Shown piece by piece: positions 14,218-41,056 of a stretch of DNA of 55,543 nucleotides. This stretch comes from a virus (Duplodnaviria; Caudoviricetes), in IMG/VR virus record IMGVR_UViG_3300035007_000011, positions 1-55,543 of that record; one strand, given 5' to 3'. Each line of letters begins with the position of its first letter. The first letter of the stretch is position 1. The translations under genes were made by a program, and so were the position numbers. A model generated the notes under the pieces. That model was not told the DNA's origin. It made no database searches and saw nothing but the letters and a program-made list of their open reading frames with translations.

Positions 14218-14224
14218 GGTAAAT

Positions 14225-21963: not shown

Positions 21964-22868
21964 GTTTTTTTTGTCATAAACCGGGCTTGAATTTCTGGAA
22001 ATAGTTCACACAATTCTGCCAACTGCACGGGGGCGTAAAATGCCAGCCATTTGTAATACTGCGAACATAATATTTCTGGCGTGCAGTACCAGAGAGTACG
22101 GGGAAAAGCTTTATTACCCTTTTTTTGGGGTATTTGGTGCATTGAATAAATAGGTGAAATCGGGGCATCTTCACTTACTAGTAATGCCCACACATCGATA
22201 TCCTTCCATTCACCTATGGGTAAAGCACGGACATAAGGAAGTGCATCTTTGTCATCTTGATCGTGAAACTGAAACATGCCTTCTCGACTTATTTCAAAAG
22301 CTCTCTCCATGCCTTCACCACCCCGATTACCCCACAAATACATTACATTTTCTTCACCTTCACCGTAGAGATGGTGAAATTGGTACAATGCTTCGTATGT
22401 AATACTTTCTGCCACTCCCCCCCAATCCCAAAAGTTGAGAAGCTTACCTTCTTTGGTGCGTAATCCGTAGGTATTGCCCCAGTCAAGATAAGAACGAATT
22501 ATCTGGGAAAATGGGCGGTCTGTGATGTAGTCTTCAAAGTAAAATTCACCTAAATATTCTTGCCATTCAATCTCTACTAAATAATGTTGGGGTAATTCTG
22601 CCCCATTTTTAATAATAAGATGCGTGTAATTGAGTTCGGCTAACTCCAAAATTAACGCAGTTGCCATTGAGTCTTTGCCATAGCCAAACCACAGCCCAGG
22701 CGGTATGTTTTGATTTACTCGCGGATCGGCATACCATTGCTGTACACGGGCTATTGTCTTGGCTTTTAGTTTTTTGAATTGGTCGGTTTTGGCGTGGGCA
22801 GCGGCGGCGGCATAGCGAGATGGGGGGAGTGCTTCAAATATTCTCATGTTGGTTCGCCTTGCTTGCAT
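21960..22868 (-). CDS. PAPS-reductase-family (PP-loop) protein
   Basis: GYGKDS, WGNRGGEGMER and PIGEWKDIDVW motifs. Confidence 0.8.
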   Translation of the reverse strand: MQARRTNMRIFEALPPSRYAAAAAHAKTDQFKKLKAKTIARVQQWYADPRVNQNIPPGLWFGYGKDSMATALILELAELNYTHLIIKNGAELPQHYLVEIEWQEYLGEFYFEDYITDRPFSQIIRSYLDWGNTYGLRTKEGKLLNFWDWGGVAESITYEALYQFHHLYGEGEENVMYLWGNRGGEGMERAFEISREGMFQFHDQDDKDALPYVRALPIGEWKDIDVWALLVSEDAPISPIYSMHQIPQKKGNKAFPRTLWYCTPEILCSQYYKWLAFYAPVQLAELCELFPEIQARFMTKKT

Positions 22869-23881: not shown

Positions 23882-24165
23882 TCACTGCAACAGCCTTTAA
23901 CTACCTCAGCAATAACGCGGCTAACTTCTTGCATTGTCCGACTGCGACGACCATGTTTAAAGTTGTTTTGGCTACTTTTAGCTTTGCCTTCTTCTGTGCG
24001 TGGACCGGTTGATTTTTCCCAAGGTTTAGCAGCTTTAATCCGTTGTCTTGCAGCCTCAATAAATTCAGGTGATAAATTGCGGCGGTATTTTTTTATAGGG
24101 TATTTTTTGGAATTGAATTCGGCTAGGAACTTCTCAATATCAAACATTTTCTTGTTGATTAACAA
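23878..24165 (-). CDS. HGGxSTG-like packaging-region protein
   Basis: STGPRTEEGKAKSSQNNFKHG. Confidence 0.7.
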   Translation of the reverse strand: MLINKKMFDIEKFLAEFNSKKYPIKKYRRNLSPEFIEAARQRIKAAKPWEKSTGPRTEEGKAKSSQNNFKHGRRSRTMQEVSRVIAEVVKGCCSE

Positions 24166-25072
24166 TAAATCTTACTGCTTCTAGAATAGTCTGCGATCGC
24201 CACTGTTGTGCTAGTCCTTCTCTAGGAATCTTGAGTTTATCGGCAGTCAATGCTATCAGCTCTTTAAATTCATCCAACACCTCTTTGTCCAAATACACCA
24301 AAAACCGCGTTTGTTCATCTGACGGGTTGTAACTCGCTGATTCAACTTCAGCCAATACCCCATCAAGAATTTCTGTAGTATCAACGGTTACTATTTCATT
24401 GTTACCCGTGGTGTAGTCGGTTGAGGAGCGTGCTTCAACATCAACCGTGTTGCCAGAGTAGTCGGTAGCATCAGGGCGTTCAAAATGCTCCTTATCTTGA
24501 TAATCAAATTCGTCTTCCGGTTCTTCCTCCTTCCTTACTAAAAAAGCTTGCATGAAATTGTTAGCAGTGGAGGTGTCCCAGCCTGCTGTTTTAATTTGGT
24601 GCTTGGGCATTTGTGCCAGAATCGCCGCAATTTTACCGGGGTCATCCCGTCCATCGTGGGAGGTGTTGTTAAGCCGCAGTAGTGCCGATTTTTGGCTGAG
24701 GGCATCAAGTGTTGCTGGGATAACAGGAGTTTTCGACCAATAGTCACTGCAAAATCGCCCTTGATGCTTGGTAGCTATTTTGTCTCTACCAGTACCTTTT
24801 ATCCAGCGATTCCACTCAGTTGTGAAGAAATCTTCATTTTGCCGTGACAGCCAATCAGCCCCGATAGTTCTGCCGTGACCTGAGATGAGGTATCCCAGAC
24901 TACCATCTAGGTTTTGCTGGATACTTGGGTAGGTTAACCAACCAAAGTCTAGCAAGCTTTCGCGTATCCAGGGTAAATCATGTTCTTCGGTATGTTCGCG
25001 GGGATTTTCGGGGTGGAATTTTTCGATGATGGTGTGGGTAGGAAGCCACATTACCTCATTCGCTTGGCTCAT
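24140..25072 (-). CDS. ParB/Srx N-terminal domain protein
   Basis: HPENPREH..IRESLLDFGW..LISGHGR..LRLNN. Confidence 0.8.
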   Translation of the reverse strand: MSQANEVMWLPTHTIIEKFHPENPREHTEEHDLPWIRESLLDFGWLTYPSIQQNLDGSLGYLISGHGRTIGADWLSRQNEDFFTTEWNRWIKGTGRDKIATKHQGRFCSDYWSKTPVIPATLDALSQKSALLRLNNTSHDGRDDPGKIAAILAQMPKHQIKTAGWDTSTANNFMQAFLVRKEEEPEDEFDYQDKEHFERPDATDYSGNTVDVEARSSTDYTTGNNEIVTVDTTEILDGVLAEVESASYNPSDEQTRFLVYLDKEVLDEFKELIALTADKLKIPREGLAQQWRSQTILEAVRFIVNQQENV

Positions 25073-26190
25073 TTTTTCACCTCTGTTGCTACAGCTTCTT
25101 GACTACGCTGCATTGCTTCATTTAACTTAAGTAATGCTGTATCTAGCTGTGGAGACTGCGAACAGTTTTTAGTCAGCCATTCGGCAAGACAATTAAATCT
25201 ACCAATTAATTGCCATTGTTGTTGTACAGGTGTCATTAGTTTTCTCGAAATTTTTATACTCTTAATATCATAAGATTTCGCCCAAAGATAAATCGTGCTA
25301 TGGTCGATTCCAAGATAGGTTTCACACCAGTGCAGGCTTTTACCTTCCTTGATATGTAACAAAGCTTTATGTTTAATCTCTTCCCCATACCCACGCCTGC
25401 CTACTGGTAACGGATTCTCTACAAATTGATGACCACAGGATTTGCAGAGGTATGATTGTTTACCAGTACGTTTCCCGTTTTTGATGGTTTCATACTTGCC
25501 GCAACTAGGGCATTTCACGCGCCCTTGAGTAATTGACCGTAATAATTGTATAGATTCGGTTTCAATTCTTTTGATTTCGCTTAGTTTCAACGAATACTCA
25601 CGCGCAACTTCTTTTATGGGAATTACTTCTATGTATATACTACGGATAATGGCAGCGTGTTGTGGCGGGAGTTGAGACAGTAGCGGTTCCCACTCAAAAT
25701 CATCATCCACGGCATTATCAGTTAGCGACTGGGGTAACTCTAGCAAATGCTGTGTACACGCTACTGCTGACTCTTGGGCTAATTCTAATTCTATATCAAG
25801 TGCTGCTGCTGCCTGGATATAGGGTATACCTTCATTTTTAGAATGCCGATTAACTTTTTGATAAGTTTCTTGCAGCTTTCGGGGTATCTTCACCAAATGC
25901 CCTTTATCGCGTAGCCATTGTAGTATTCCACCTTGGATGAAAGGGATAGCCAAGGTGGAGAATTTGCGGTTTTTGGTAGGGTCGAACCGTTCCACTGCTT
26001 TGATTAATCCCAAAATACCAACTTGTACCAATTCTTCAAAGGGCAGCGTGCAGTAGTTTGTCATTTTGTGAGCAGTCATGTGGACTAAGCCCGTGTTTTG
26101 CTCAACTAAAATGTTGCGGAGACGGATATCTTTGTTTTGATGATACTCAAGAAATATTACTTCATTATCTAAATATGTCGTGCAAACCAT
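25069..26190 (-). CDS. SigB/SigF/SigJ-type sigma factor fused to an IS1-InsA-like Zn ribbon + HTH
   Basis: LRNILVEQNTGLV, ELVQVGILGLIKAVERFDP, FSTLAIPFIQGGILQWLRDK..VKIPR; then CPSC..KNG....QSYLCKSCGHQF and LGIDHSTIYLW. Confidence 0.88.
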   Translation of the reverse strand: MVCTTYLDNEVIFLEYHQNKDIRLRNILVEQNTGLVHMTAHKMTNYCTLPFEELVQVGILGLIKAVERFDPTKNRKFSTLAIPFIQGGILQWLRDKGHLVKIPRKLQETYQKVNRHSKNEGIPYIQAAAALDIELELAQESAVACTQHLLELPQSLTDNAVDDDFEWEPLLSQLPPQHAAIIRSIYIEVIPIKEVAREYSLKLSEIKRIETESIQLLRSITQGRVKCPSCGKYETIKNGKRTGKQSYLCKSCGHQFVENPLPVGRRGYGEEIKHKALLHIKEGKSLHWCETYLGIDHSTIYLWAKSYDIKSIKISRKLMTPVQQQWQLIGRFNCLAEWLTKNCSQSPQLDTALLKLNEAMQRSQEAVATEVKK

Positions 26191-26207
26191 TTCACCCTAA
26201 TATCCGA

Positions 26208-26576
26208 ATGACTTTCACAATAAGCGTAGAGGGGCAATTCACCACTGACCCGGAAACTGGAAATCCGGTACAGGTGACAGTCCCTTACCAAGTAGAAGCA
26301 TGGTTGCAGGGTAATAACAGCGTAAAACCTGAACCTGGAAGTAACCCTAACATGGTTATGCTACAGGGATATTCCGTAAAACCACGGATTTTACCAAACG
26401 AAATAATCTATAAACAATCTGAAGCAGTTGCAGTTTACATAGACCCCTTAACTGGGAATCAGCACCAAGGGAAATTTACACTCAAGCCAAAGTTTGACAG
26501 TAACCGTCCTCGTGTTGCTAAAGCATTGGCAAGAGGGATTGGAACCCAGATGGAGGGGACATTTGAATGGAGTTAA
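26208..26576 (+). CDS. Probable head-tail joining protein
   Basis: TTDPETGNP motif, beta-rich, ~122 aa. Confidence 0.45.
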   Translation: MTFTISVEGQFTTDPETGNPVQVTVPYQVEAWLQGNNSVKPEPGSNPNMVMLQGYSVKPRILPNEIIYKQSEAVAVYIDPLTGNQHQGKFTLKPKFDSNRPRVAKALARGIGTQMEGTFEWS

Positions 26577-26746
26577 GCCGAGAGCAAGAATTTAAGATTT
26601 GTAGTTTCAATCAGCAAGTCAAATATTTGACCGAAATTGAAGTTAAACAAAAATTGGTGGAGATGTACCAAAGGATGATTATTCTACAAAATCATTATCA
26701 GCGGGAAATCAAAAAAACGTGGTTGATTAATGATGTGGGAAAATAA
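26567..26746 (+). CDS. nblA: NblA-like phycobilisome degradation adaptor (missing from ORF track)
   Basis: Hand translation MELSREQEFKICSFNQQVKYLTEIEVKQKLVEMYQRMIILQNHYQREIKKTWLINDVGK matches the NblA pattern LSxEQxF...SF..QV..L......L..MY.QM.......Y...K..W. Confidence 0.85.
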   Translation: MELSREQEFKICSFNQQVKYLTEIEVKQKLVEMYQRMIILQNHYQREIKKTWLINDVGK

Positions 26747-26768
26747 TTTTGTCCTACCCTGTCCTACT

Positions 26769-27254
26769 ATGTCTACAAGTATGGATATTAACCAAGTCGC
26801 TGAATATCTGGGTGTTTCCCACAAAACAGTTCGCCGTTACGTCAAGGCTGGAAAGCTTAAGGTAAAGTATGTTGAGGGTAAGGGAGTATACGATCAAGCC
26901 GAGGTAGAAGCGTTAAAACTTGACAAGCAAACACCCGTACACCGTGTTTTCCCATCGGTGGAGGAGGACATTCAATTGTCCCAGTTTGTCCCACCAGAAA
27001 TTGAGGGTCGAATTATACATCGACAGCAAGGGTTTGAAGAATATTATACTCTGCGATATTTGGAAATAAAGTTAACGCTGACTATAGAAGAGTGCGCGAT
27101 GATATCAGGTTTTTCTAAGGCTGGGTTAAGGAGTGCGGTAAAATCGGGAACATTAAAAGCAATAAAATATGGTGGTCGCTGGAGAGTGCGATCGCGTGAT
27201 TTAGAGGAATACGTAAAATGCCTATTTGGAGATCGTGGACACCCCCACAACTGA
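26769..27254 (+). CDS. Tandem excisionase/MerR-like HTH protein
   Basis: INQVAEYLGVSHKTVRRYVKAGKL and LTIEECAMISGFS..LRSAVKSGTL..KYGGRWRV. Confidence 0.8.
   Translation: MSTSMDINQVAEYLGVSHKTVRRYVKAGKLKVKYVEGKGVYDQAEVEALKLDKQTPVHRVFPSVEEDIQLSQFVPPEIEGRIIHRQQGFEEYYTLRYLEIKLTLTIEECAMISGFSKAGLRSAVKSGTLKAIKYGGRWRVRSRDLEEYVKCLFGDRGHPHN
27146..27155 (+). promoter_or_regulatory. GGGAAnnnTA motif for the tail-completion pair
   Basis: GGGAACATTA, 62 nt before ATG 27218. Confidence 0.5.
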
Positions 27255-27508
27255 CTATCACCACCGCAACGTACCGATGGACAGCACCCTACGCCTATGA
27301 TGTTCATGAGCGTCAGGGAAATCGCTGGACTGATAGAGGGTTATCGGGGAGTAATTTACCTGCTGAGTTTGCCACAAATTACCAAACTACCCACAATCTA
27401 GATTCGGCATTTACCATGACTGCTAATTACCTCAATCTACGTTTTTTACAAGAGTGTCCGGTTCGTAGTGGTCAGTTGAAAGCGTCGCAATCGATAACAT
27501 TTTCTTAG
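27218..27508 (+). CDS. HK97 gp10-like tail completion protein
   Basis: APYAYDVHE and CPVRSGQLKAS motifs (order permuted relative to typical gp10). Confidence 0.55.
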   Translation: MPIWRSWTPPQLTITTATYRWTAPYAYDVHERQGNRWTDRGLSGSNLPAEFATNYQTTHNLDSAFTMTANYLNLRFLQECPVRSGQLKASQSITFS

Positions 27509-27539
27509 CTTGAACAATTGTTCCTAGAAGCAGGAAAAT

Positions 27540-27950
27540 ATGCCCCAACACATCCACACCACCGCCCAACTCCGAAGCGCTCTTGCCGATTTACTTTTCG
27601 CCGAACTAGGGAATTTTGCCAACAATCAACCCGCCATCTGGGTTGAACCACCATCTACACCCAAAGGTGGCGCGAGTGGTGGTGTGGAGGTGAGTATTTC
27701 TCGGTTCAAGAATGTTTCTAGTAGTTCGCTGATGCTAAACAATCAACAAGAACAGCGCTACGAATGGATTGTAGCGGTGAAATTATATGAGCGCACCCCT
27801 GAAGCTTACAGCAAATTCAACAGCGCTATTGAAAAAATGCGGCGTTACTTCCCCAGGAGGCGAGAGACGGTATCACCTTACAGTGAAGAGGAGAATTTGA
27901 TTGCTACGTTTCGACTGAGTGAATTGGAAGTTATCAATAGTTACGTTTAA
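27540..27950 (+). CDS. Probable tail terminator
   Basis: 136 aa; follows the gp10-like gene. Confidence 0.4.
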   Translation: MPQHIHTTAQLRSALADLLFAELGNFANNQPAIWVEPPSTPKGGASGGVEVSISRFKNVSSSSLMLNNQQEQRYEWIVAVKLYERTPEAYSKFNSAIEKMRRYFPRRRETVSPYSEEENLIATFRLSELEVINSYV

Positions 27951-28040
27951 CTTCTTGCTGTTATTCTCAATAAATAAGTCTGCGTTGCCTAACTATATCA
28001 GGATAAGCGCAGATTTCATTGAAAAATCTTTCAACATCTA

Positions 28041-28069
28041 TTGACATTTATTATTAATTATGCTATAAT
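28041..28069 (+). promoter_or_regulatory. Consensus sigma70 promoter
   Basis: TTGACA-17-TATAAT, exact match. Confidence 0.8.
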
Positions 28070-28122
28070 AGAGAAAAGGGGGAAAATCTCTTCAATCCCC
28101 CCCTCACTACAGACTTTAAATC

Positions 28123-28341
28123 ATGGCGATTCAACATCTTCTCACTTTGGCTATCGAAGCTATCTTCTATTGCTTCACCGCTTTCATGGCAATAGACATC
28201 TTCATCCGCTACACTGCTCCATTTTCAGTCCCGCCATTGCCTAAGAAGACAAAAAACCCCAAACCCCAGAGTCTGGACGAGCTTGAAAACGACGGGATTT
28301 ATAATTTCGGACTCGCCTTGGCGCTCTCAGACCCCGACTAA
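28123..28341 (+). CDS. Small membrane protein
   Basis: Hydrophobic N-terminus; directly downstream of the consensus promoter. Confidence 0.5.
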   Translation: MAIQHLLTLAIEAIFYCFTAFMAIDIFIRYTAPFSVPPLPKKTKNPKPQSLDELENDGIYNFGLALALSDPD

Positions 28342-28784
28342 CGCGGACTTTGGGGGCAGCGCGATCGCGCTGCCCCGGCAATATCAAACAATCAACGCTA
28401 TACTCTGCACACTTCCGACCACTACACTCCTTAGTTGGCATCACGCCTGGGGCAATGCGATCGCGATTATGTAATCCCAAATGGAATCTACGAAAAGCGC
28501 TAGCGCAACAAGGTAGCTGGGACAGATCGAAAAATGCTAAGACCCGCACCCCGCTAGAGTTTGTCACCACGGCGATGGTTCCGGAGTCGCTGGTTCCTTT
28601 GGAAAAGTCGCCCTCCTCAATAATCAAAGAAAGGTTGGCGACGGTTCGATCCTTGGCAAATATATCTATAGGAGCAGAACCCAAAAGGCTTATTAGGGTT
28701 GCGTTGAGTGTCGAGGAGGGCGATCGCTAATTAAGTGAATCTGCGATCGCCTACCTGAAAATTGCTGTAATCAATACTGGATAC

Positions 28785-29057
28785 TTATTCCCCACTTGCT
28801 AGCCTGACAAACATTTCTTCAAAACTTAATCCTTCTTGTGATGCTTGAAAAGCTATCAACTCGCACCATTCAGGAGTAAGTCGGCGTATTGATGCCGACA
28901 ACAAACTGGCTGAATCAGCTGCCATACCTCTTTTTTTAACGGCAGCAGCAGCTTTCAAAACCCAGTAGTCCATATCTGCTAACTTAGCTGTTTGCACTCG
29001 TGTATCGTCTATTTTTGGCAGCCTAGCAGCTATTTCATCCCAGTTTGGAACTTCCAT
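28785..29057 (-). CDS. Small putative DNA-binding protein
   Basis: 90-aa helical ORF divergent from the 29186 HTH gene. Confidence 0.55.
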   Translation of the reverse strand: MEVPNWDEIAARLPKIDDTRVQTAKLADMDYWVLKAAAAVKKRGMAADSASLLSASIRRLTPEWCELIAFQASQEGLSFEEMFVRLASGE

Positions 29058-29185
29058 ATTACTTTCTCATAGCTTTTTATCTGCCGTTATATTACTATAA
29101 TCCTAGAAAAAGATGCGCCCAGTGCTGACGACACCGGACGACTTCCCCACCATCAGAAACTACCTGACAGAGGAGCAATTCAAGT

Positions 29186-29401
29186 ATGACTCCAATTGAG
29201 CTTCAAATAAAGTGGAATTTATCAAACACAGAGCTTGCGATCGCAATTCGCAAGACAGAAGAAACTATCAAGGCGTACAAGGTTAGGAAGTCAGCGCGAT
29301 CGCACCGCAACCCGCCACAAAGCACTATTTTGTTGTGTGAATTACTAGATAAAGAATGGGAAGCAGCAGGCACGGCACAGATACGTCTAGTTGCCGCATA
29401 G
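29186..29401 (+). CDS. Cro/XRE-like HTH protein
   Basis: LSNTELAIAIRKTEETIKAY..RNPP; gaggag RBS. Confidence 0.7.
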   Translation: MTPIELQIKWNLSNTELAIAIRKTEETIKAYKVRKSARSHRNPPQSTILLCELLDKEWEAAGTAQIRLVAA

Positions 29402-29481
29402 GTACAAAGTAACCGACAAAGTAGATTGCCCGCACCGTGCGGGTTTCTTATTGTGATAGTGCAACCACAAAAACTTGCACT

Positions 29482-29709
29482 ATGGACAGCACAACGCATT
29501 TACAGACACTTGAAAACTCCCTTAATCCCCGCGACCCTCAGACAGTCGCCCTCAAAAACCTCAAAGCGGTAAACAACCGATTGATTGATGCGATCGCAGA
29601 AGCTCACGAATCATTGTTAAAATCCGCCGGCTCATCCAGCGAACCAGACAAAATCTTGAGTGCTTGCAGTATCCTTGCCCAGGCTTTGGCAGAAGTAGCA
29701 AAGGTTTAG
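29482..29709 (+). CDS. Hypothetical protein
   Basis: Helical 75-aa ORF. Confidence 0.45.
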   Translation: MDSTTHLQTLENSLNPRDPQTVALKNLKAVNNRLIDAIAEAHESLLKSAGSSSEPDKILSACSILAQALAEVAKV

Positions 29710-29945
29710 TTTTGTTTCAATTGTTGCAAAAGCTGCCTCATGTATGCATTGTGAAAAGCGATCGCATTCAGTGCAGACAACGAAGCATCAATACTTCCAA
29801 AACTGCCTAAACCCAGCACGATAGTGCAATGCGATCGCACTCTCACCTATTGCTTCAAAGCGATCGCACTTCACAGATTGCAACTTCCTTCAAACCCGTT
29901 GCAGCAAGCATTGTAAAAATCGAGTTCAAAAACAGAGAAATTTTT

Positions 29946-30344
29946 ATGGCGAGAGAGGGGGAAACCCACAGAAAAATCTTTGAATCGCAGTTTGGGAAAC
30001 CAGTTAGAGCGCAAGCCTGGAATGCGATCGCACTCCAGATGAAAGAAGCTCAAATGCCTTTCACTGTCGAAAATTTAAAGTTTGTTGCCAAATGCAAAAG
30101 GATTGCCAATTACCACAGAGTCAAGTCACCGGTTCTCAAAAATGTCATCACAGCAGCTGCCCAATTGGGAGAGGAGGCATACGGCTTTCAAATTCTCCAA
30201 TGCGTCTTCCGACTTAAACCTGGGCTGACGCGAGACAAGTTTTATCGAGCATTCCGCACCTCTGGTATCCCCTTCAAACAGTCCTTTCAGTTCAAAATCC
30301 CTGAGCTAGGGGAAGTCCTTTACAAAATATTCGTGGAAAGATGA
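29946..30344 (+). CDS. Hypothetical basic protein
   Basis: First of a translationally coupled series. Confidence 0.55.
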   Translation: MAREGETHRKIFESQFGKPVRAQAWNAIALQMKEAQMPFTVENLKFVAKCKRIANYHRVKSPVLKNVITAAAQLGEEAYGFQILQCVFRLKPGLTRDKFYRAFRTSGIPFKQSFQFKIPELGEVLYKIFVER

Positions 30345-30943
30345 ACCAAAATAAAGTCAAAGTTATTCAGTCGCAGTTGAAGCGTCGCGGGACGAGCATG
30401 TCCTTGGCAGATATCAGGGACGCTCTAGCACTGTCCTACGGTGAGGATGTAGAAATCGACGACGAAATTGTTGCCGCAACTGTAGAAAAATTAATTGGCA
30501 GTGCAGTGGTTGAATCAAGTAGCGCCATGACTGTGGAAGAAAAACCAGAATTAATTACAACCAATATAGAAAAAGAAAAAATAGTTATTTCGGTAGCTCA
30601 ACAAATTAATGTGTCGTTGCCGATTGAAGCAATCAAGCAAATAGCATCAAGTATTGATTGGGCAATTGATTCTCGTTCCGCCTTAATGAAAGAACTGCGG
30701 AGTGCAATTCAAGCTTGGGCAGATCATAAATTAGCAGAAGCTCAAAAAATAAGTGATGAAATTCGCGAAGAAACTAATCAATTATTTGTAGATGTTTCTC
30801 AAACAATTAATAATGCGATCGCTTCTGACAACGAATTGTTTGAAATCAAAGCTATGGAAATGAAGAGCGTAGTAGACCAAGCTGTTGAAACTTTTCGGAC
30901 TTCCCATAAAGAAATCCTTGATATTTTCAAGATTCCAGCTTGA
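30341..30943 (+). CDS. Coiled-coil protein
   Basis: 200 aa, ATGA overlap with the previous gene. Confidence 0.65.
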   Translation: MNQNKVKVIQSQLKRRGTSMSLADIRDALALSYGEDVEIDDEIVAATVEKLIGSAVVESSSAMTVEEKPELITTNIEKEKIVISVAQQINVSLPIEAIKQIASSIDWAIDSRSALMKELRSAIQAWADHKLAEAQKISDEIREETNQLFVDVSQTINNAIASDNELFEIKAMEMKSVVDQAVETFRTSHKEILDIFKIPA

Positions 30944-31038
30944 AGAAATTGAATCTTACACAAAGTCACACAAGTTGAACTTGCTATTGCTTGTGCTTGC
31001 ATTTCCACTTCTACTATTAACTTTCCAAAATATTTTGT

Positions 31039-31692
31039 ATGGCAACCCCCAAACACATCAAAACCCGTATCAACACCAACACCAAAGCAGGTAGCGCTGC
31101 TGCTAGAGTAACCGGATTTAGTCCACAAGAATTAGAGCAAATATTGAAAGGCGATCGCGTCGCCATCAAAAAGCTGCGTGACTGCTATTACGAGTCAAGA
31201 ATGGCTGAATTAACTTTGCCGATGATGGAAGAAACTATTCCCAAAAGCATTGAGGTTAATAAACGGTGGAATCAGCTATTAGGAAAGTACGTTGCCCAAG
31301 GTAGCGCGGCTGATTTAGCTATTGAATCATCTGCGACCCAGGCATCTTTTGCAAACATGAAATATGTTCATGGGACAAAAGAGCTAAAAGAAGGATTTCA
31401 AGCGCAAGTGGAAATTGAGCGGGAACGGCATAGCAACCAAATTGATTATCAACGAGCTAAATTCTACGTTGATATGGTTTTTCAAAATGTTGATGCTGAC
31501 ACTAGGCAATTTGAGCAGGGGAAACGAGTAGCAGTAGCCCAACTAGTGGCAGATGAAGCTTATGAAATGGAATCAACTGTGGCAGTTTGGGAACACGGAA
31601 CCCTTGACCATATCAAGCGCAAGAACTATGAATCGCATCTAACCAAGCCAGGAAACATCTGGCGCAGAATGAAAAATGCTTTGGGGATTTAA
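31039..31692 (+). CDS. Coiled-coil protein
   Basis: 217 aa; amphipathic C-terminus NIWRRMKNALGI. Confidence 0.65.
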   Translation: MATPKHIKTRINTNTKAGSAAARVTGFSPQELEQILKGDRVAIKKLRDCYYESRMAELTLPMMEETIPKSIEVNKRWNQLLGKYVAQGSAADLAIESSATQASFANMKYVHGTKELKEGFQAQVEIERERHSNQIDYQRAKFYVDMVFQNVDADTRQFEQGKRVAVAQLVADEAYEMESTVAVWEHGTLDHIKRKNYESHLTKPGNIWRRMKNALGI

Positions 31693-31694
31693 CT

Positions 31695-31976
31695 TTGACA
31701 ACTTTTTGCGCCTTCTTCATCTACTGTCTTTCATTAAATCAATCTGTTAATTCCGTCCAACCAGTAACGGTTCAACCCGTTACTTCCCAAAAAAAACCAG
31801 CACCTATTCAGCCTAAACGCCCTAACGCACAAACATGTAAAAAGTTTCAATACGATCCGAATCATAAGTATTTAGCTACAATTTCTTCCGCAGAACTTCA
31901 AAAGGAATGGGAGTTGTATCAAGAGTGGGAAAAATCTGGATGCGGCTTTAACGATTATTATGAAAACCGAATTTGA
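31695..31976 (+). CDS. Small exported/membrane-anchored protein
   Basis: Hydrophobic N-terminus, Pro-rich linker, 2 further Cys. Confidence 0.5.
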   Translation: MTTFCAFFIYCLSLNQSVNSVQPVTVQPVTSQKKPAPIQPKRPNAQTCKKFQYDPNHKYLATISSAELQKEWELYQEWEKSGCGFNDYYENRI

Positions 31977-32409
31977 GTATGCATCTAATTGGCAAAATAC
32001 TCGCAGAAAAACTTTAAAACTGATGCCAAGATGTACCTGTAATCCACTGCACAAAGCATCAATTGTTCACCACTTAAAATACAAGCGATCGCTCTTACGT
32101 CGGTTATTTGGTTGTTTCTTGTTACATAATCCTTTTCAAGCTTCGGTATCAGGCTACGAGATTCTTGGTTGGGACATCGTACCCGTGTGCAGCAGCTGTC
32201 ACGAAAATAGTTATGGTCGAAGTCTCAATCACAAGAGTGTCCATTACACAAAAGTTTGGAAACAGAAAGGCGGATTAAATAATCACAACACATTCTTTTT
32301 TACGTGGAAGATGCGGTTTCTATTTTGGATTTGGATTAGTTTATTAATGCCATTAAGATGTTGCCATCAATTGATGAAATCGTTGAAGAAAGAGAAGAAA
32401 GCGAGGTAG
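31960..32409 (+). CDS. HNH-like endonuclease with hydrophobic C-terminus
   Basis: CTC..A..VHHLKY...IVPVCSSCH; MRFLFWIWISLLMPL. Confidence 0.7.
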   Translation: MKTEFEYASNWQNTRRKTLKLMPRCTCNPLHKASIVHHLKYKRSLLRRLFGCFLLHNPFQASVSGYEILGWDIVPVCSSCHENSYGRSLNHKSVHYTKVWKQKGGLNNHNTFFFTWKMRFLFWIWISLLMPLRCCHQLMKSLKKEKKAR

Positions 32410-32936
32410 AGAAAGTCTATACTGACTACCTCGAAAGACTGGAAATGTCGCGCTTATCAACTGAAGCTGCATTTGATTTTATTCGCAATTGTTTAATTTC
32501 GCTAACAGCAAATACCGCGAATACAGCAATGATCTACGTCTGTATCGACTTTGGAATGCACTGGTTATCAGCCTCTATGTTTGGTTTCGGATTGGGCTTG
32601 ATTCCGGTGGCATATCACCTCAATAATGCTGGTATTGATTTAAGTAGTGAATTTAAAGTGAAAAAGATTGGTGCGTTAATAGTAGCTGGCGGCTGCCTAG
32701 TCGCTGCATTTAATGTTAGTTATCAGTCAGGGGGAGAAAAGCGAACTCTAATTGATTTTACGAATAAAGGATTGATGGAATCTTCGCGAGAAGTTGCCAA
32801 CTATGAAGTCAAATTTAGCCCGTGGGATGGGGTTAATTTTTGGTTTTCGTATCATTCCATGCAAGCGGTAGGGAGTGGGTTAATCCCTGCTTTATTGGGT
32901 GCGATCGCAATGAAATATTTAAGAGGCAGGCGATAA
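32358..32936 (+). CDS. Multi-pass membrane protein
   Basis: 3-4 hydrophobic segments. Confidence 0.7.
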   Translation: MLPSIDEIVEEREESEVEKVYTDYLERLEMSRLSTEAAFDFIRNCLISLTANTANTAMIYVCIDFGMHWLSASMFGFGLGLIPVAYHLNNAGIDLSSEFKVKKIGALIVAGGCLVAAFNVSYQSGGEKRTLIDFTNKGLMESSREVANYEVKFSPWDGVNFWFSYHSMQAVGSGLIPALLGAIAMKYLRGRR

Positions 32937-34625
32937 GTGGAATGGTTAAAACTATTTAAGCAGCAAAATCAAGCCGCACTAATTATGTGCGGTTTTCTTG
33001 CAGCGTCGGGAATAGTAGCGCAAGTTTATTCGTTGTCCGGGACTAAATACGATGTAATTGAATATTGTTTTAAACCCCACAGAATTAATAATAAAAAAGC
33101 TAAATACTGCACTGACGATAAAAAGTATATTGCTCCTTTGGGATTTTACGAGCAAGAGAAATATGCTCCCGCAAACCCGCGTTTTCAGCGGGAGGATATA
33201 TTTGTACTCTCAGATAAAATGACGCGGTTGCGGACGATTCCAGCGACAAATCCGCAAGCTAAGAACTATGCGATCGCTGGATTGATATTAGAAATTGCTG
33301 CTACATTTTTAATTTCTCAAAGAGCTAAACGTTATAAGCGGGAATTTGCCGCTTATTTTGAGCAATTAAAAACTGATTTAAATCAAGAAATTAAACTTAA
33401 CGAACAAAAGCGATCGCTCTTCAACCATAAAGTTGCGGTTGAAACTGAATATATCAAAGATGCCATTACCGACCGCGACGCTGTACAGCGCTATCAAGAT
33501 AAACCGCCAGAGTTGCGCGAATTTGAGTCACAGCAAGCTCGTCTCCATAACGAAGTAGTAGAACTTCAAAGGCAAGTACAATTAGCTAAATTTAAGGCTG
33601 AGATAGCCAAATTAGAGGCAGATGAAGCTAAATTTAAAAGTGAAGCTTCTCGACATTTGAGTGCAACGGCTGACCCCTTAGAGTTGGCAGAAGAAATTGA
33701 TTATAAAGCTTTATGCCCTGGAAAAGTAGGAGAGCTTGAATTTTATGATTGGCGAAACCTAGCTGATGATGCTGTTGGTATTATGGTTGTGGGGAATAGT
33801 GGTAGCGGCAAGACTAGCGTAGCCAGTTGGATTGCGGGGTGGCTAACCAAAGACAAACCAGCGCAAGTTTTGGCGCTTGACCCCCATGCAAACAGAAATC
33901 CGTTATGGAATCAGTTAAACATTTATGTAATTTCTGATTTTCAATTAATTCAGCGCCAATTAGAAATCTTGTTGGAAATTCTCGATCAAAGACGCGCTAT
34001 GACGTTTGAAGAAGTTGAAAATGCAGATACAATTATTTGTTTTGCAGATGAGCTTTCTGCTTGTATCAAACAATTTAATGACCCCAATGTAGTAACTCAT
34101 TCGCTTGAAAGGCTTGGTTGCGAAGGGCGGAAATATAAAATAGTTTTCATTGCTATGAACCAAAGTATAAATACCAAAGATAACAAAGATACCTCCGCTG
34201 CAATGTTATCAAATTATTTGATTATTCGATTGTGCGCGATCGCCCGTCAAATTTCTGAGCGGTGGAAAAAAACCGATCCTCGACACAAGCACGTCCAAGA
34301 AACGGCTTACAGTTGTGTAATTTGTGGTTCGGCTTCTACTAATGTTGCCGTGCATCCTACGCACCACAGCTACAAACAATACAAGCAAAAAGGTAACAAG
34401 CCTCTTGGATTATTACCAATAAATCAACTTCCCCTCACAATTCAATTAGCATCTCCCCAGGATATTCAAACTGATTGGCACGAGGACTTAATACTATGGG
34501 CAGACGAACTAGGAAGGCTACCAAATCCCCAGGAAATAAAAGAGCATTGGGAGGAAATGATGGGACATCCCCCAAGCGGCAAGCAAGTGGAAATGCTGCA
34601 CGAATATCTAAAAAACCGGAACTAG
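32937..34625 (+). CDS. Membrane-anchored FtsK/HerA-like P-loop ATPase
   Basis: Two N-terminal TM segments, coiled coil, Walker A GNSGSGKT, LALDPH, Walker B ICFADE, EGRKYKIVFIAMNQS. Confidence 0.8.
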   Translation: MEWLKLFKQQNQAALIMCGFLAASGIVAQVYSLSGTKYDVIEYCFKPHRINNKKAKYCTDDKKYIAPLGFYEQEKYAPANPRFQREDIFVLSDKMTRLRTIPATNPQAKNYAIAGLILEIAATFLISQRAKRYKREFAAYFEQLKTDLNQEIKLNEQKRSLFNHKVAVETEYIKDAITDRDAVQRYQDKPPELREFESQQARLHNEVVELQRQVQLAKFKAEIAKLEADEAKFKSEASRHLSATADPLELAEEIDYKALCPGKVGELEFYDWRNLADDAVGIMVVGNSGSGKTSVASWIAGWLTKDKPAQVLALDPHANRNPLWNQLNIYVISDFQLIQRQLEILLEILDQRRAMTFEEVENADTIICFADELSACIKQFNDPNVVTHSLERLGCEGRKYKIVFIAMNQSINTKDNKDTSAAMLSNYLIIRLCAIARQISERWKKTDPRHKHVQETAYSCVICGSASTNVAVHPTHHSYKQYKQKGNKPLGLLPINQLPLTIQLASPQDIQTDWHEDLILWADELGRLPNPQEIKEHWEEMMGHPPSGKQVEMLHEYLKNRN

Positions 34626-34966
34626 ATTATTCAGTGCGGTACGGCAATAATTATAGTCGGGAGTGTGCTGTAGCTTGGGAAACTCATAAAGATTTGGGGT
34701 CTATTTGTGTATGCTGTTTAAAAGCTAAAGCAACTCAGTTGCATCATACGTCTTATGGGGGAAACCCTCTAAACAGGCTATATGAAAACTGGACACCTGT
34801 TTGTGTTAAATGTCATCGAAACTTATGTCATGATAAAACAAAATACTGGGTTCTTGATAAAAAGAATCCAGTATGGGGAAATTGCAATACTGAAGAGTTC
34901 AAAAAAAGACTTAAGCTAGGGTTGGATCTTTTACGGTGTCTTTATTTAAATTCCTTTATTAAATAA
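34496..34966 (+). CDS. HNH-like endonuclease (plus strand; the track's '-' label is wrong)
   Basis: Plus-strand atg ggc aga cga..ttt att aaa taa encodes the listed protein; CVCC..A.QLHHTSY..N.TPVCVKCH. Confidence 0.75.
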   Translation: MGRRTRKATKSPGNKRALGGNDGTSPKRQASGNAARISKKPELDYSVRYGNNYSRECAVAWETHKDLGSICVCCLKAKATQLHHTSYGGNPLNRLYENWTPVCVKCHRNLCHDKTKYWVLDKKNPVWGNCNTEEFKKRLKLGLDLLRCLYLNSFIK

Positions 34967-35148
34967 AAACGCTTTCATTTTTCAGGAATAAAAGCGCAGA
35001 GAATCAACTTAAAATGTTGCTTAAATCTTAACTATTTTCCCCAGAATTGTCAATAAAAAAGCACCTTTCGGTTAACGACAAAGGGTGCTTAATACGTGAA
35101 AAAAAACTAAATCCATTGCTTTAACCCTAACCTTCAAAACTCCAATCG

Positions 35149-35682
35149 TCAAGGAATTAAACTCGCTAACTTCTCTTCAATCCTCGCTATTTTCCGCTGC
35201 ATAATCGCTTCAGCTTCAGTTTGCTGAACTTGTGCAGATAGTCGCCCTAATTGACTTCGCACATCTTCAATTGCCTCACTATTGAGCGCGATCGCATCCC
35301 GCAAATTCTCTTCCGCTGCTTCCATACGCGCTAACATTAAAGAGTGTTTTTCGAGAAGTGCAATACTTTGCTCTTCTTTTCGTACTTGGTTTACTTGAAT
35401 TGACTGTTTTTTATCGCTTATCCAAGTAAACCAAGCGCTAAAAATTGAGAATAAAAGAGCTAATACTCCCACTGATTCAAGAAAGGCTTTCCAAGTTGTA
35501 AAGGGTAAGTAGATATCGAAAATGCGCTTTGCCAACCACATAGCGATCGCACAAAATATCAGAGTAAGAATTAACCAAACTAAATATTTTTCATACTTCG
35601 CGTATCTTTGATAAAGTCTCTTCCTCGAATTGGGAAAAATCTCGTTCGGATTCATATAATAAGATGATTTGTTCATTTCCAA
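35149..35682 (-). CDS. Two-TM + coiled-coil protein in the lysis cassette (holin/spanin-like)
   Basis: Two TM helices followed by a coiled coil; downstream of the endolysin. Confidence 0.5.
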   Translation of the reverse strand: MEMNKSSYYMNPNEIFPNSRKRLYQRYAKYEKYLVWLILTLIFCAIAMWLAKRIFDIYLPFTTWKAFLESVGVLALLFSIFSAWFTWISDKKQSIQVNQVRKEEQSIALLEKHSLMLARMEAAEENLRDAIALNSEAIEDVRSQLGRLSAQVQQTEAEAIMQRKIARIEEKLASLIP

Positions 35683-35992
35683 GAATTATTTCATCGCCAT
35701 GTTTTAGGCAAGCATATTCAACACGCCGACCATTTACAAAAATGCCATTAGCGCTCTTGTACTGCCCCCAGCCATCAATTAATTGGTAGCCAATTTCGTC
35801 TCGATACAAAACGCAATGTATCGCAGATAAATACTTGGCTTGGTTGAAGATAATTAAAGTCGGGGTTTGGTCAAATGCGATCGCTTTTTTTATGCACCTA
35901 TGCTTAATTCTGCCGATTATATAGTTACCATCTAGGACAAGACGAAATGAGTCGCTCCCGGACTCATTTATAAGTAGCGAGTGCCGTTTCAA
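35591..35992 (-). CDS. FHA-domain protein
   Basis: IGR, SAIHC, SANGIFVNG and LKHGDEIILG motifs. Confidence 0.85.
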   Translation of the reverse strand: MKRHSLLINESGSDSFRLVLDGNYIIGRIKHRCIKKAIAFDQTPTLIIFNQAKYLSAIHCVLYRDEIGYQLIDGWGQYKSANGIFVNGRRVEYACLKHGDEIILGNEQIILLYESERDFSQFEEETLSKIREV

Positions 35993-36000
35993 CTTACTCC

Positions 36001-36180
36001 TTATTCTTTTTTTGCGCTTTGAGCCAAGCCAGAAGCTCCAGCAATCGCTGTACCAGCCAGCCCAAGACCAGCTGCTGTTTTAGTCTCGCTTAAGTCAGAA
36101 AATATTACAATGATGCCAATTATTCCGCCAATTATTCCTAACAATAAAGGCGTTGAGGCTTGAATTAAATCAACTTTCAT
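36001..36180 (-). CDS. Holin-like small membrane protein (missing from track)
   Basis: Hand translation MKVDLIQASTPLLLGIIGGIIGIIVIFSDLSETKTAAGLGLAGTAIAGASGLAQSAKKE; overlaps the endolysin stop. Confidence 0.65.
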   Translation of the reverse strand: MKVDLIQASTPLLLGIIGGIIGIIVIFSDLSETKTAAGLGLAGTAIAGASGLAQSAKKE

Positions 36181-37001
36181 AGTTTGCTTCCATCCATAAT
36201 TGTTGTTAGAAATACATAATTATTGTTGGCTTGATAACGAGGGTCTGATTTGATAATTTTCATAAACTCTAAATGACCTCTTGTGGACTGACCCACTAAA
36301 CAGCCGGCACTAGCTCCATCGACTTGGGGCATGTCGTACCCCCAGTGTTGGTTTACACCAAAGTCTGAGCCGATCACAACAGTGTCGCCAGTGCGAAAAC
36401 CGTCTTTATTGCGATCACGATAGCCTTTAATCTCGCCAACCTGCACCAAGGCTTCATGGGTTTTATGCCAGCCGACAGACCAGGCTTTATACTGACTCAA
36501 GGCGACACGGAAAGCACCACCTGGATTAAGAGGATTGATTGTATATTTTAATCCTGGCTCTGTGGTTGCGTTCCAACAATTACTAATTTTAGGAATGCCG
36601 TTTTCAACCCGTAAAATCAAGCGCAAATCATTCCACTCATTCATGGTGTCGGCGTTGGGTTTGCCGTCTGAGTTGCAACCTTCCGCGTACACAATATTGT
36701 TGTGTCGTTCATCAATCCAGTAATTTTGAGCCAGCATATATTTAGCGATACGGGCTGCAAAATCGCCCTTGCTTAAGTCAAGTTTGGGCTGAGGTAAGGA
36801 CTTAAGTTGCAGCAACTCAGGTGTTAAAACTTGACTTTTAGTAATTTGAAGTAATTCAGCTATGGCACATCTGGTTTGCGCCCCTACTTTTCCGTCAGCA
36901 GTCCCAGATAATAATTTTAAATTAATCAATATTGATTGCACAAATGCAGCTAATTCTTTGTCAGCAGCAATTGCTTCAATATCTAAAGTATTTAATTTCA
37001 T
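36177..37001 (-). CDS. Putative endolysin (PG-binding domain + HxxxSAGC YkuD-like domain)
   Basis: VQSIL..ADGKVGAQTR (PG-binding); GVNQHWG..ASAGCLV. Confidence 0.7.
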   Translation of the reverse strand: MKLNTLDIEAIAADKELAAFVQSILINLKLLSGTADGKVGAQTRCAIAELLQITKSQVLTPELLQLKSLPQPKLDLSKGDFAARIAKYMLAQNYWIDERHNNIVYAEGCNSDGKPNADTMNEWNDLRLILRVENGIPKISNCWNATTEPGLKYTINPLNPGGAFRVALSQYKAWSVGWHKTHEALVQVGEIKGYRDRNKDGFRTGDTVVIGSDFGVNQHWGYDMPQVDGASAGCLVGQSTRGHLEFMKIIKSDPRYQANNNYVFLTTIMDGSKL

Positions 37002-37185: not shown

Positions 37186-38079
37186 TTACTCCACAATCCC
37201 ACTCGCTGTCATCGTAGTAGATCCGCTTGCTACTTGTGCTTGGATTCTGACTGATTCCATCCCTTCGCAGCGCATTCTGAACCAGCCATTGCCACCCGCA
37301 GGAATGGTAATAATAGTCCCGCTACTCACGCCACTGTTGATAATTTCAGCGCTGCCATTGTTAGCGGTTTTACCGTTACTGGTTGTAAAGTCGGCGGTAG
37401 TAGATGCAACTGCATTCCAAATAGTCAAAGCGCTATTAAACCGTGCTTGCACTTGTAAACCTGAAAGTGCAGTAGCACCAGTATTCTGTAGTTGTACACC
37501 CAAAGTATTTTTACCCCGACAATCAAAGGTGATTACGGTCGTGAGTATGGTAGTAATGGTTACAGCACTAGCTGTTTGTGCTTCTAAAAAAAAGGTTTCT
37601 GCTACACTACGCACCATAGCCATCAAAGAACCGGAACGCGCCGCAGTGTCTCCAGTAATGCCCAGTGATCGCAACTTGGCGTGAATTGACCCCGTACTAG
37701 ATGCGGTATCAGAAGTTGTACCAAGCCCTTCAGCCAAAGCACGTAGCCGTGCCATGAGCGTACCCGTAACTGACAAGGCATCGGAAGTTGCACCGATTGT
37801 GTCGGCAATTAGCAGCCGCAATTTGGCATGAATCGAGCCTGTAGCAGAGGAAGCGTCCGTTGCATCCCCTAACAGGTTTTGCCAAAGACCGCGAATTATT
37901 GAAGCAATTGTGCCGTTATCGCTAGGGCTATTTATAGGTGAATTGTTGGTTTCACCCAGGCGGTCATAAGTTCCTTGGTCAGCAAAACTAAAAACATCGG
38001 GGTCGCCAGTTGTCCCATCTCCAGAGGCGGATTTGCGCTGGCGTAATGCACCGGAACCATCAATATAAGAAACACTCAT
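37186..38079 (-). CDS. Tail fibre-like protein with tandem repeats
   Basis: About 4 repeats of the type G.T.D.....GS/T..A.LR; directly after gpJ. Confidence 0.6.
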   Translation of the reverse strand: MSVSYIDGSGALRQRKSASGDGTTGDPDVFSFADQGTYDRLGETNNSPINSPSDNGTIASIIRGLWQNLLGDATDASSATGSIHAKLRLLIADTIGATSDALSVTGTLMARLRALAEGLGTTSDTASSTGSIHAKLRSLGITGDTAARSGSLMAMVRSVAETFFLEAQTASAVTITTILTTVITFDCRGKNTLGVQLQNTGATALSGLQVQARFNSALTIWNAVASTTADFTTSNGKTANNGSAEIINSGVSSGTIITIPAGGNGWFRMRCEGMESVRIQAQVASGSTTMTASGIVE

Positions 38080-40948: not shown

Positions 40949-40954
40949 TTTGAA

Positions 40955-41056
40955 TGAAGGAAGAAGGAAGACGGAAGAGGGAAGAAGGTTGAGGATCATA
41001 GGGAAGATTTAAAATAAATTCAACCTTCTTCCTACTTCCTCCGAACTTCTTCCTTC
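40955..41056. repeat. Inverted heptamer arrays, copy 3, between divergent tail genes
   Basis: (gaaggaa-like)n gaaggttga ... tcaaccttc (ttcctac/ttccttc)n. Confidence 0.85.

Follow-up and report, generated by a model that had tools for sequence, protein, structure and literature searches.

What is a membrane-anchored ATPase, with membrane and Cys/His-rich partners, doing among the late genes of a tailed phage that already has a terminase of its own? The question is raised by a block of genes in IMG/VR virus record IMGVR_UViG_3300035007_000011 (Duplodnaviria; Caudoviricetes), of which positions 1 to 55,543 were analyzed here (hereafter, the window). An earlier note on this DNA had delimited a block of about 7 kb (28041-34966) and read it either as a translocase for cell-to-cell movement of DNA along the filament or as a new defense or exclusion system. 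The block is real and its limits differ from those proposed, the conserved unit being an operon of genes A to G at 29482-34966 (Table 1). This operon, of which full-text literature searches yielded no description, encodes a putative FtsK-type membrane translocase of mobile elements, centered on a conserved pair of membrane proteins (E and F) with an intact FtsK-type motor and homologous between plasmids and phages.

The ATPase F carries the motifs GNSGSGKT (Walker A, residues 285-292), ICFADE (Walker B, residues 367-372) and GRKY..MNQS (GRKYKIVFIAMNQS), from which a transmembrane (TM)-anchored ATPase of FtsK/HerA type had been proposed, and both profile and fold comparisons bear out this membership. 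Across 100 sequences K292 and R398 are invariant and G286, G289, D371, E372 and K399 nearly so, and in a set of 80 sequences K292 is again invariant, with D371 and E372 invariant or nearly so. A total of 224 cluster representatives are related to F (E <= 0.001), mostly aligned over residues ~265-505. As a single sequence, F reached 16.4 bits against the Pfam DUF87/HerA model (cut-off 23.2) and returned only P-loop noise from the PDB, and FtsK_SpoIIIE was matched by 9 of 80 F-family members (E <= 0.01). The profile of these 80 members, searched against solved structures, matched HerA (8.5e-8), FtsK (2.5e-7) and the pCW3 coupling protein (3e-6), with EccC and EssC also among the matches. Its alignment to FtsK spans Walker A, Walker B and the R...Q segment, in which 'RKfgitliainqS' of the family corresponds to 'RaaGihlilatqrp' of FtsK.

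The AlphaFold2 model of F (100 sequences; predicted local distance difference test score [pLDDT] of 90.8) starts with a TM helix (TM1, residues 2-33), followed by an outside β domain (34-105) with two invariant cysteines. Helix 108-188, which starts as TM2, and a return helix (191-242) form a coiled-coil hairpin stalk leading to a RecA-like, FtsK-type motor (256 to ~500) and a three-helix C-terminal domain (514-561). An outside loop and a cytoplasmic motor agree with the Lys/Arg-rich segments that precede TM1 and follow TM2 and with the two invariant cysteines that the loop holds. Coiled coil is demonstrated for this stalk only, where two coiled-coil proteins had been described in the block; the library matches of gene C are weak and of coiled-coil type. 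In a Foldseek comparison against the PDB, TcpA of pCW3 ranked first (2.8e-6, at 15-18% identity), followed by EssC (7e-6) and FtsK (8e-6). Among viral models the top three matches are unnamed proteins aligned near full length (5e-13 to 1e-10), and the next are FtsK-type and A32-type ATPases and one Nodularia phage protein; tblastn searches with F and with the motor alone found no match in 50,697 GenBank phage records. Taken together, the profile, the model and the Foldseek results identify F as a membrane-anchored, FtsK-branch member of the FtsK/HerA superfamily that belongs to no curated family.

Nor is F a remnant of a VirB4/VirD4 system, an origin that the earlier note had kept in view: T4SS-DNA_transf (PF02534) and TraG-D_C (PF12696) have no Pfam match in the operon, and within the same genome they match only on contig C36. 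The protein encoded there (C36:146-1534, L061) is a genuine type IV coupling protein (PF02534, 2.9e-19; PF12696, 1.2e-24), so that a classical conjugation system may exist alongside the FtsK-like operon.

The gene directly upstream of F encodes the multi-pass membrane protein E, whose presence had been anticipated and is seen in its hydropathy. A contact between E and residues 1-250 of F is predicted with a score of 0.57, versus 0.00 for the best of three controls; at least 86% of contacts agree among runs, with a partner pLDDT of at least 67. Of 80 solved complexes, 58 reached the mark adopted for a contact, as did 2 of 110 mismatched pairs, and since scores of 0.60 or lower comprise only 7 of the 80 complexes and both passing mismatches, the prediction lends weak support to a physical E-F pair.

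The operon was found in five other Nostoc prophage or viral loci whose backbones are otherwise unrelated, and F has 28 full-length relatives at 53-75% identity, the named ones from Anabaena, Nostoc and Aulosira. Genes A to G occur in the same order in 4/4 full-length loci, three of them in Nostoc metagenome-assembled genomes (L001, L002 and L003) and one on an IMG/VR contig (L005), with homologues of gene A 46-52% identical in all four; L004 ends at F. A second viral contig (L066) carries B to G, with no homologue of A detected, followed by a homologue of the endolysin-like gene of the window. The related loci hold two extra small genes between A and B that are missing from the window, and there is no feature common to all of them on the upstream side of A or the downstream side of G. 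In L003 and L004 the operon lies beside a Mu-like portal and a Mu F-like protein, and in L003 host genes start ~2.3 kb past G. The source of L005 (G403) is rated a complete viral genome of 82,861 bp with a 127-bp terminal repeat, and encodes a portal, a head protease, a major head protein, an integrase, a serine recombinase and a replication initiator. When window open reading frames (ORFs) of at least 70 residues were compared with G403 (E <= 1e-5), nine matched and seven of these were operon genes. The operon is thus a plasmid-type cassette carried by temperate Nostoc phages and not the property of one phage lineage. A prophage of N. punctiforme is described as a sheathed-tail element in an excerpt of PMC12691664.

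In a phage setting, F might be thought to serve packaging or replication, as an alternative terminase with an HNH partner or as a membrane-tethered replication factor. In some phages terminases are assisted by HNH proteins, the viral structural matches include packaging ATPases of FtsK/HerA type, and residues 275-413 of F match phrog_2666 ('terminase large subunit') at 1.9e-8, a match confined to the P-loop region. We consider this explanation highly improbable: as had been pointed out, the phage already has a canonical large terminase subunit (TerL), F is membrane-anchored with no nuclease domain in its model, and homologues occur on plasmids without capsid genes. G403, in turn, shows no Pfam match to Terminase_6N or TerL_ATPase, a point for the packaging role, but it has a 623-residue Walker-A protein at the TerL position and a replication initiator of its own. 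That 623-residue protein (L054 6270-8141, minus strand) is encoded just upstream of the portal, carries the Walker-A-like sequence GASQIGKT, has no Pfam, PHROG or PDB match, and is possibly a very divergent large terminase.

The same loci, together with the structural matches, bear on whether the operon exports protein in the manner of EssC/EccC, with the small helical proteins A to C as cargo, or acts in lysis-linked release of phage. EssC is among the top Foldseek matches and EccC/EssC were recovered in the profile search, several small and probably helical proteins precede the membrane pair, and endolysin- or holin-like genes are neighbors in the window, L003 and L066, with an FHA protein adjacent in the window and in L003. 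F, however, has a single ATPase domain and no EssC tandem array, no WXG motif is visible in A, FtsK and TcpA score equally well or better, and the plasmid versions of the operon have no lysis context, which leaves both export and lysis very unlikely.

These plasmid versions link the phage cassette to a second class of mobile element. D, E and F are homologous to an operon of identical gene order on the Nostoc plasmids pCC7120delta and pNPUN04, where a ParM/StbA-like or a 375-residue protein is followed by small ORFs, a 223-residue protein, a 192-residue membrane protein whose gene overlaps the ATPase start, and the ATPase itself in last position. The F and pCC7120delta ATPases share 27% identity over residues 7-320 (E 2e-25), in an alignment that takes in Walker A and the periplasmic sequence EYCF.P...AKYCT.DK.YI.P...YAPANP.FQR...TRLR.IP..NP. 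D matches the 223-residue plasmid proteins, encoded two genes upstream of the ATPase, in full-length tblastn alignments (26-28% over ~212 residues, E 1e-6 and 1e-7), and the E family aligns with the 192-residue plasmid proteins in hhalign (probability 93.7%, E 1.9e-7). The plasmid proteins at the position of gene B are 27% identical to each other and align poorly; B itself has no family match in scans of the family libraries, and its longest ORF has a net charge of +15. The plasmid versions have no HNH-like gene; in the phage version, one or two proteins of Cys/His zinc-finger (HNH-like) type come in addition.

A TM protein directly precedes the ATPase in 13/14 distant F loci (9 of the 30 genome-survey loci and 5 fetched separately), and the contigs of distant relatives encode ParA/ParB, recombinases and primase-helicases. 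Copies also occur on small plasmids, namely a Moorena plasmid of 9,474 bp, a Pseudanabaena plasmid of 12,574 bp and pDU1 of Nostoc PCC 7524 (6,361 bp), which we take to be the replicon of the standard Anabaena shuttle vectors. The pDU1 copy (L065, NC_008440.1, 1557-2690) is a distant F relative of 377 residues (E 2e-7 to the F of the window) preceded by three small ORFs. In RefSeq, relatives are named 'hypothetical', 'ATP-binding protein' and, twice, 'type IV secretory system conjugative DNA transfer family protein', the two being those of Pseudanabaena galeata and of pNPUN04. For the pNPUN04 protein the name was not reproducible: classification of this ATPase as VirD4-type was rejected, as it has no PF02534, PF12696 or PDB match and no similarity to the type IV coupling protein encoded in the genome of the window. 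Separately, the ATPases of pNPUN04 (L059, 11950-13773) and pCC7120delta (L060, 9950-11677) are 68.6% identical over their first 285 residues, while the last 320 residues of the pNPUN04 protein are unrelated to those of pCC7120delta and have no PDB match; the sequences suggest that motor domains were exchanged on a membrane module that the two share.

The distribution of F was surveyed in 401 cyanobacterial genomes, including that of the window, 28 of which have a match (E <= 1e-15). All belong to the order of the window and to 6 of 42 families (f1, 19/45; f3, 4/25; f4, 1/6; f7, 1/2; f12, 1/4; f18, 1/1; other sampled families, 0). Several genomes have copies on different small contigs (C7, C8, C10 and C11 in G059), and copies from a single genome have diverged (identity of 54.5% in G334, and of 43% over the C-terminal half in G059). 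Among the plasmids of PLSDB, the window F retrieved 27 records (Nostoc, 13; Planktothrix, 10; Annamia, 2; Pseudanabaena, 1; Allocoleopsis, 1), and queries with the distant F of G334 and with the pCC7120delta F retrieved 19 and 46 records, adding Tolypothrix, Moorena, Calothrix, Microchaete and Scytonema. We take all of these genera to be filamentous; Annamia is described, in an excerpt of PMC10751749, as the only filamentous genus of Chroococcales. A control search for the CyRepA1 Rep protein retrieved 251 records, including Synechococcus (22), Acaryochloris (20), Synechocystis (16) and Geminocystis (6), and none of the three F queries matched a plasmid of these four genera. Equal frequency in unicellular taxa, which the earlier note had said would speak against its reading, was therefore not found, and relatives, as searched, occur only in filamentous cyanobacteria.

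This distribution also bears on replicon maintenance, in which an FtsK-like pump would clear or deliver the DNA of the element across the closing septum together with ParM/ParB-type partition genes. FtsK and SpoIIIE do this for chromosomal DNA, and FtsK was matched in both the profile and the Foldseek searches; the plasmid operon is headed by a gene that RefSeq assigns to the ParM/StbA family, the prophage of the window has a ParB-like gene nearby, and the copies are replicon-specific. A maintenance device, however, should serve unicellular hosts equally, in contrast with the absence of matches in the four genera above; it would leave the periplasmic domain and the HNH-like proteins without a role, and an integrated prophage segregates with the chromosome. 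We therefore regard maintenance as distinctly unlikely.

The Cys/His proteins that distinguish the phage versions had been described as two HNH-like ORFs bracketing the membrane protein-ATPase pair. Two paralogous Cys/His ORFs, HNH1 and G (HNH2), do flank E-F, while their HNH identity lies at the level of motifs. G lies 3' of F in 6/6 loci covering that stretch, always in frame -1, and is also present in L066. Its longest ORF in the window opens at 34475 and overlaps F by 150 nucleotides, probably an effect of the longest-ORF rule: a GTG lies 9 nucleotides past the F stop in 5/6 loci, the conserved part of G begins just past that stop, and a conserved K/H-W in F accounts for the start codons further upstream in the G frame. 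Gene callers give G lengths of 111-146 residues elsewhere. Synonymous-site identity is 0.61-0.67 over the last 60 codons of F, versus 0.45-0.57 over most of the gene, and is also 0.61 over the first 50 codons. The window has a slippery A AAA AAC two codons ahead of the stop of F (34608-34625), where a -1 slip would enter the G frame; a programmed -1 frameshift joining F to G was rejected because this heptamer is absent from the five other loci.

Neither the G nor the HNH1 ORF has a Pfam match, and thus no HNH family model recognizes them; a PHROG HNH match was obtained for HNH1 only (E 0.071). Compared by hhalign with nine PF01844 domains from the same genome, the G family places four motif elements in register, weakly (E 0.0047, probability 7.5%), and the link of the HNH1 family to canonical HNH domains is also weak, with just 11 columns aligned. 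The G profile returned cytochrome c artefacts at CxxCH from the PDB, with IscB and Cas5-HNH at E 0.3-0.4, and the AlphaFold2 model of G is poor (pLDDT 42). 'HNH-like' is accordingly a motif-level label for both putative nucleases. HNH1 is a paralogue of G by hhalign of the two families (the G-side alignment includes HNH1 itself) and has 24 homologues besides itself, with a conserved hydrophobic C-terminal tail.

HNH1 and the ORF preceding it are missing from L001, L002, L003, L005 and L066, and hence represent an insertion between D and E, restricted to a subclade. The preceding ORF had been described as an exported protein, a description that reduces to a TTG-started ORF of this insertion with putative export. 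The twin HNH arrangement probably recurs, since three HNH1 homologues lie on contigs equal in size (911638, 48023 and 45378) to contigs with F homologues.

It is the HNH-like proteins, coupled to F and in one case provided with a membrane tail, that make superinfection exclusion, or defense against phages or plasmids, worth weighing. In such a system DNA entering the cell would be caught at the membrane and cut there by the motor and an HNH-like partner, which would protect the lysogen or the cell that bears the plasmid. Pairs of HerA/FtsK-type ATPases and nucleases are known defense architectures, solved HerA defense complexes appear among the profile matches, the cassette moves among unrelated phage backbones like an accessory module, and a lysis-gene neighborhood is a common site for morons. 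Set against this, ten operon proteins compared with PADLOC-DB 2.0 gave no significant match (best, P-loop or coiled-coil, E 0.00036 to 0.013), the plasmid versions have no HNH-like gene, and the HNH nuclease identity is at motif level only. Replicon-specific divergent copies would moreover be costly for plasmids of 6-13 kb and are unexpected of a defense acting in trans. On balance we judge defense or exclusion rather improbable. Of the two roles put forward in the earlier note, translocation agrees with an FtsK-clade, membrane-anchored motor with membrane partners, and defense is without support from PADLOC.

The role that we tentatively favor, short of an even chance, is that of a plasmid-type membrane translocase of double-stranded DNA that acts on its own replicon and works like TraB or TcpA. 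An export or transfer role is favored by the TraB/Spd-like combination of a single motor, small membrane partners, absence of relaxase and VirB4, carriage on small plasmids or integrated elements, and filamentous hosts; the homology of D-E-F to a plasmid operon and the replicon-specific divergent copies likewise argue for a role in DNA mobility, with the operon presumably acting on the DNA of its own element. Under this model, a ring of F at the cytoplasmic membrane, held in position by E and by the periplasmic domain of F, would pump the double-stranded DNA of its own replicon across the membrane, the direction and the substrate being only inferred. The basic protein B and the three-helix C-terminal domain of F may help select the DNA, and in the phage genome the HNH-like proteins could possibly supply an end or a cut. 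Plasmid or prophage DNA would in this way pass to a neighboring cell without a classical type IV secretion system (T4SS).

Comparison with the closest known systems shows where this model has precedent. TraB/Spd of Streptomyces, which transfers double-stranded DNA between neighboring cells of the mycelium according to an excerpt of PMC3548315, likewise combines a single membrane-anchored FtsK-like motor bearing a small C-terminal helical domain with small membrane proteins encoded beside it; it too has a multicellular, filamentous host, in which small plasmids and integrated elements carry it with no relaxase or VirB4 nearby. The three-helix C-terminal domain in the model of F is a candidate counterpart of the DNA-recognizing winged helix of TraB. 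F is set apart from TraB by a periplasmic β domain of 70 residues and a coiled-coil stalk of 130 residues; no repeat array like that of clt, the cis-acting locus whose short direct repeats the translocase binds, was found, D and E belong to no known family, and the phage forms add HNH-like proteins. TcpA of Clostridium perfringens pCW3, the best structural match of the motor, also has two N-terminal TM helices followed by an FtsK-type ATPase. Its partners are a relaxase, a VirB4-like ATPase (TcpF), a VirB6-like protein (TcpH) and a hydrolase, types that are not recognizable in the operon, and its identity to F is low, as given above. FtsK and SpoIIIE share with F the membrane anchoring, the motor fold and the aligned Walker A, Walker B and R...Q elements; F differs in falling below the Pfam cut-off, in having no long linker, and in belonging to mobile elements, with one cell often harboring several copies that have diverged. 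What the operon has in common with HerA-nuclease pairs and HNH-assisted terminases is an ATPase of this superfamily, translationally coupled to a small Cys/His protein whose motifs follow an HNH-like order; the operon differs in that its motor is membrane-bound, G is a putative nuclease, no PADLOC match was found and TerL lies elsewhere in the window.

Several observations weigh against transfer. DNA binding, ring formation, translocation and transfer itself are all steps that we infer, and we know of no report of DNA passing between the cells of a cyanobacterial filament. No origin-of-transfer or clt-like repeat array was found at 27500-35200, where only families centered on GCGATCGC (HIP1) occur, and library scans recognized no relaxase, peptidoglycan hydrolase or pore protein in the operon; the absence of relaxase and T4SS families from the block had been noted before and stands. 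F as a single sequence is above the cut-off of no Pfam family (FtsK_SpoIIIE, PF01580, 15.4 bits versus 24), and EssC, a protein secretion ATPase, is structurally as close to it as FtsK. The ParM/StbA-like gene (a RefSeq name) that opens the plasmid operon points to segregation, and lysis genes (endolysin or holin-like) abut the cassette in the window, L003 and L066. MOB-suite types the plasmids with F as non-mobilizable (18/27, 19/19 and 16/46 for the three queries) or mobilizable, never as conjugative, which would be expected of a system unfamiliar to the tool and still offers no support. Leptolyngbya plasmids, 11 of which are in the Rep control, have no F match. Finally, restriction to filamentous hosts is a pattern and not proof, because it rests on tblastn at E <= 1e-5, an insensitive search, and on matches that are kin and not independent.

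According to an excerpt of PMC3548315, homologues of TraB are confined to Actinobacteria and those of TcpA to Firmicutes. D-E-F could then be a third independent lineage of FtsK-clade transfer of double-stranded DNA, specific to filamentous cyanobacteria, through which plasmids would spread along or between trichomes without virions or a T4SS, as would temperate phages having acquired it along with HNH-like cutters; we rate this wider proposal as unlikely on present evidence, though far from negligible. The movement of plasmids in filamentous cyanobacteria is not well understood, and the operon provides a concrete, widespread and genetically testable candidate, whose homologues include one on pCC7120delta, a plasmid of the model strain Anabaena/Nostoc PCC 7120, and a distant one on pDU1. 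If it does transfer DNA, FtsK-type conjugation would extend beyond Gram-positive bacteria and would be tied to multicellular growth a second time, and temperate phages would be seen to exploit the route by which a plasmid spreads. If exclusion or segregation is its purpose instead, it is still an undescribed membrane machine common to phages and plasmids.

Table 1. Features of the operon, of the stretch preceding it and of the surrounding prophage (window coordinates; TM, transmembrane).
Feature	Coordinates	Strand	Basis or remark
Portal	3036-4517		
Major head protein	12907-14283		
TerL (Terminase_6N protein)	16945-18432		PF03237, 5.3e-14
ParB-like gene	24140-25072	-	
Sigma-70 consensus promoter, TTGACA-17-TATAAT with TG	28041-28069	+	12/12 consensus match
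72-residue ORF, one predicted TM helix	28123-28341	+	Hydropathy; no homologue in related loci
90-residue acidic ORF, half of divergent pair	28785-29057	-	Absent beside operon elsewhere
71-residue basic ORF, other half of divergent pair	29186-29401	+	PHROG repressor, E 0.041
Terminator-like hairpin and T-run	29428-29444		3' of the 29186-29401 ORF
Gene A, small helical-looking protein	29482-29709	+	Likely start at ATG, residue 16 of ORF opening at 29437
Gene B, ~130-residue basic protein	29946-30344	+	Conserved part from ATG at 29946
Gene C, 200-residue acidic protein (net charge -12)	30341-30943	+	Kept in L001, L002, L003, L005, L066
Gene D, 217-residue protein	31039-31692	+	Kept in all related loci
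93-residue TTG-started ORF	31695-31976	+	Within insertion
HNH1, Cys/His-rich (C..NP.H, HH, C..CH.N), hydrophobic C-terminal tail	31960-32409	+	Paralogue of G; within insertion
Gene E, 192-residue multi-pass membrane protein	32358-32936	+	Hydropathy; stop abuts F start codon
Gene F, 562-residue ATPase	32937-34625	+	Motifs, profile, AlphaFold2 model
Gene G (HNH2), ~110-residue Cys/His protein (CxC(C), HH, N, CxxCH, H)	34634-34966	+	Follows F
Hairpin with T-runs, operon 3' end	34969-34997		Between operon and convergent lysis-side genes
Endolysin-like protein	36177-37001		
Tail protein J	38079-40382		
Tail assembly protein	40385-40999		

The remainder of the block originally delimited, upstream of gene A (28041-29444), is specific to the window: the promoter, the small TM ORF and the "regulator pair" all lie outside the conserved unit. 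The sigma-70 promoter credited to the block is perfect and is the sole perfect match in the window (0.01 expected from 100 shuffles), yet it is not conserved and is unlikely to be the operon's own, because it lies 1.4 kb upstream, facing the TM ORF, a 443-nucleotide non-coding stretch and then an opposing gene. It probably drives the 72-residue TM ORF rather than the conserved operon. A GGGGG...CCCCC stem-loop lies downstream of it, at ~28078-28105. The non-coding stretch (28342-28784) is HIP1-rich, holds no convincing ORF and is not kept in related loci; its RNA fold has a z-score of -2.1, and it has no Rfam match as a structured RNA. A transcript from the promoter would enter the 3' side of the 28785-29057 gene in antisense. 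The two divergent ORFs had been taken for regulators, an assignment that is not borne out, as neither has a significant family match (the best is the PHROG repressor in Table 1) or is conserved in related loci.

The window constitutes the first 55.5 kb of contig C53 in a genome of 6.5 Mb and 74 contigs, and HIP1 sites are abundant in it. A ParB-like/sigma-70-like/HTH_17 block (24140-27254) lies on one side of the operon block and the convergent lysis-and-tail genes on the other. In the former, the stretch 24140-26190 (minus strand) includes a gene for a 373-residue protein with sigma-70 regions 2 and 4, an InsA-type zinc ribbon and a long C-terminal extension, which overlaps the ParB-like stop; a PAPS-reductase-like gene lies at 21960-22868. 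The lysis-side cluster (35149-37001, minus strand) encodes a two-TM coiled-coil protein, an FHA-domain protein (PF00498, 4.4e-10), a 59-residue TM protein and the endolysin-like protein. FHA and small TM genes adjoin the operon again in L003, as does an endolysin-like gene in L066.

The genes for head, portal and TerL are not all on one strand, and the prophage may therefore have been rearranged or be in decay. It also contains insertion sequence genes, an IS605 OrfB/TnpB-type gene and a DDE transposase (1398-2903 and 18539-19459), the latter adjoining TerL. A 2127-residue ORF occupies the plus strand at 46223-52606, in a region with strong GC and AT skew, and G403 also has a giant ORF (2634 residues), with no tblastn match between it and that of the window.

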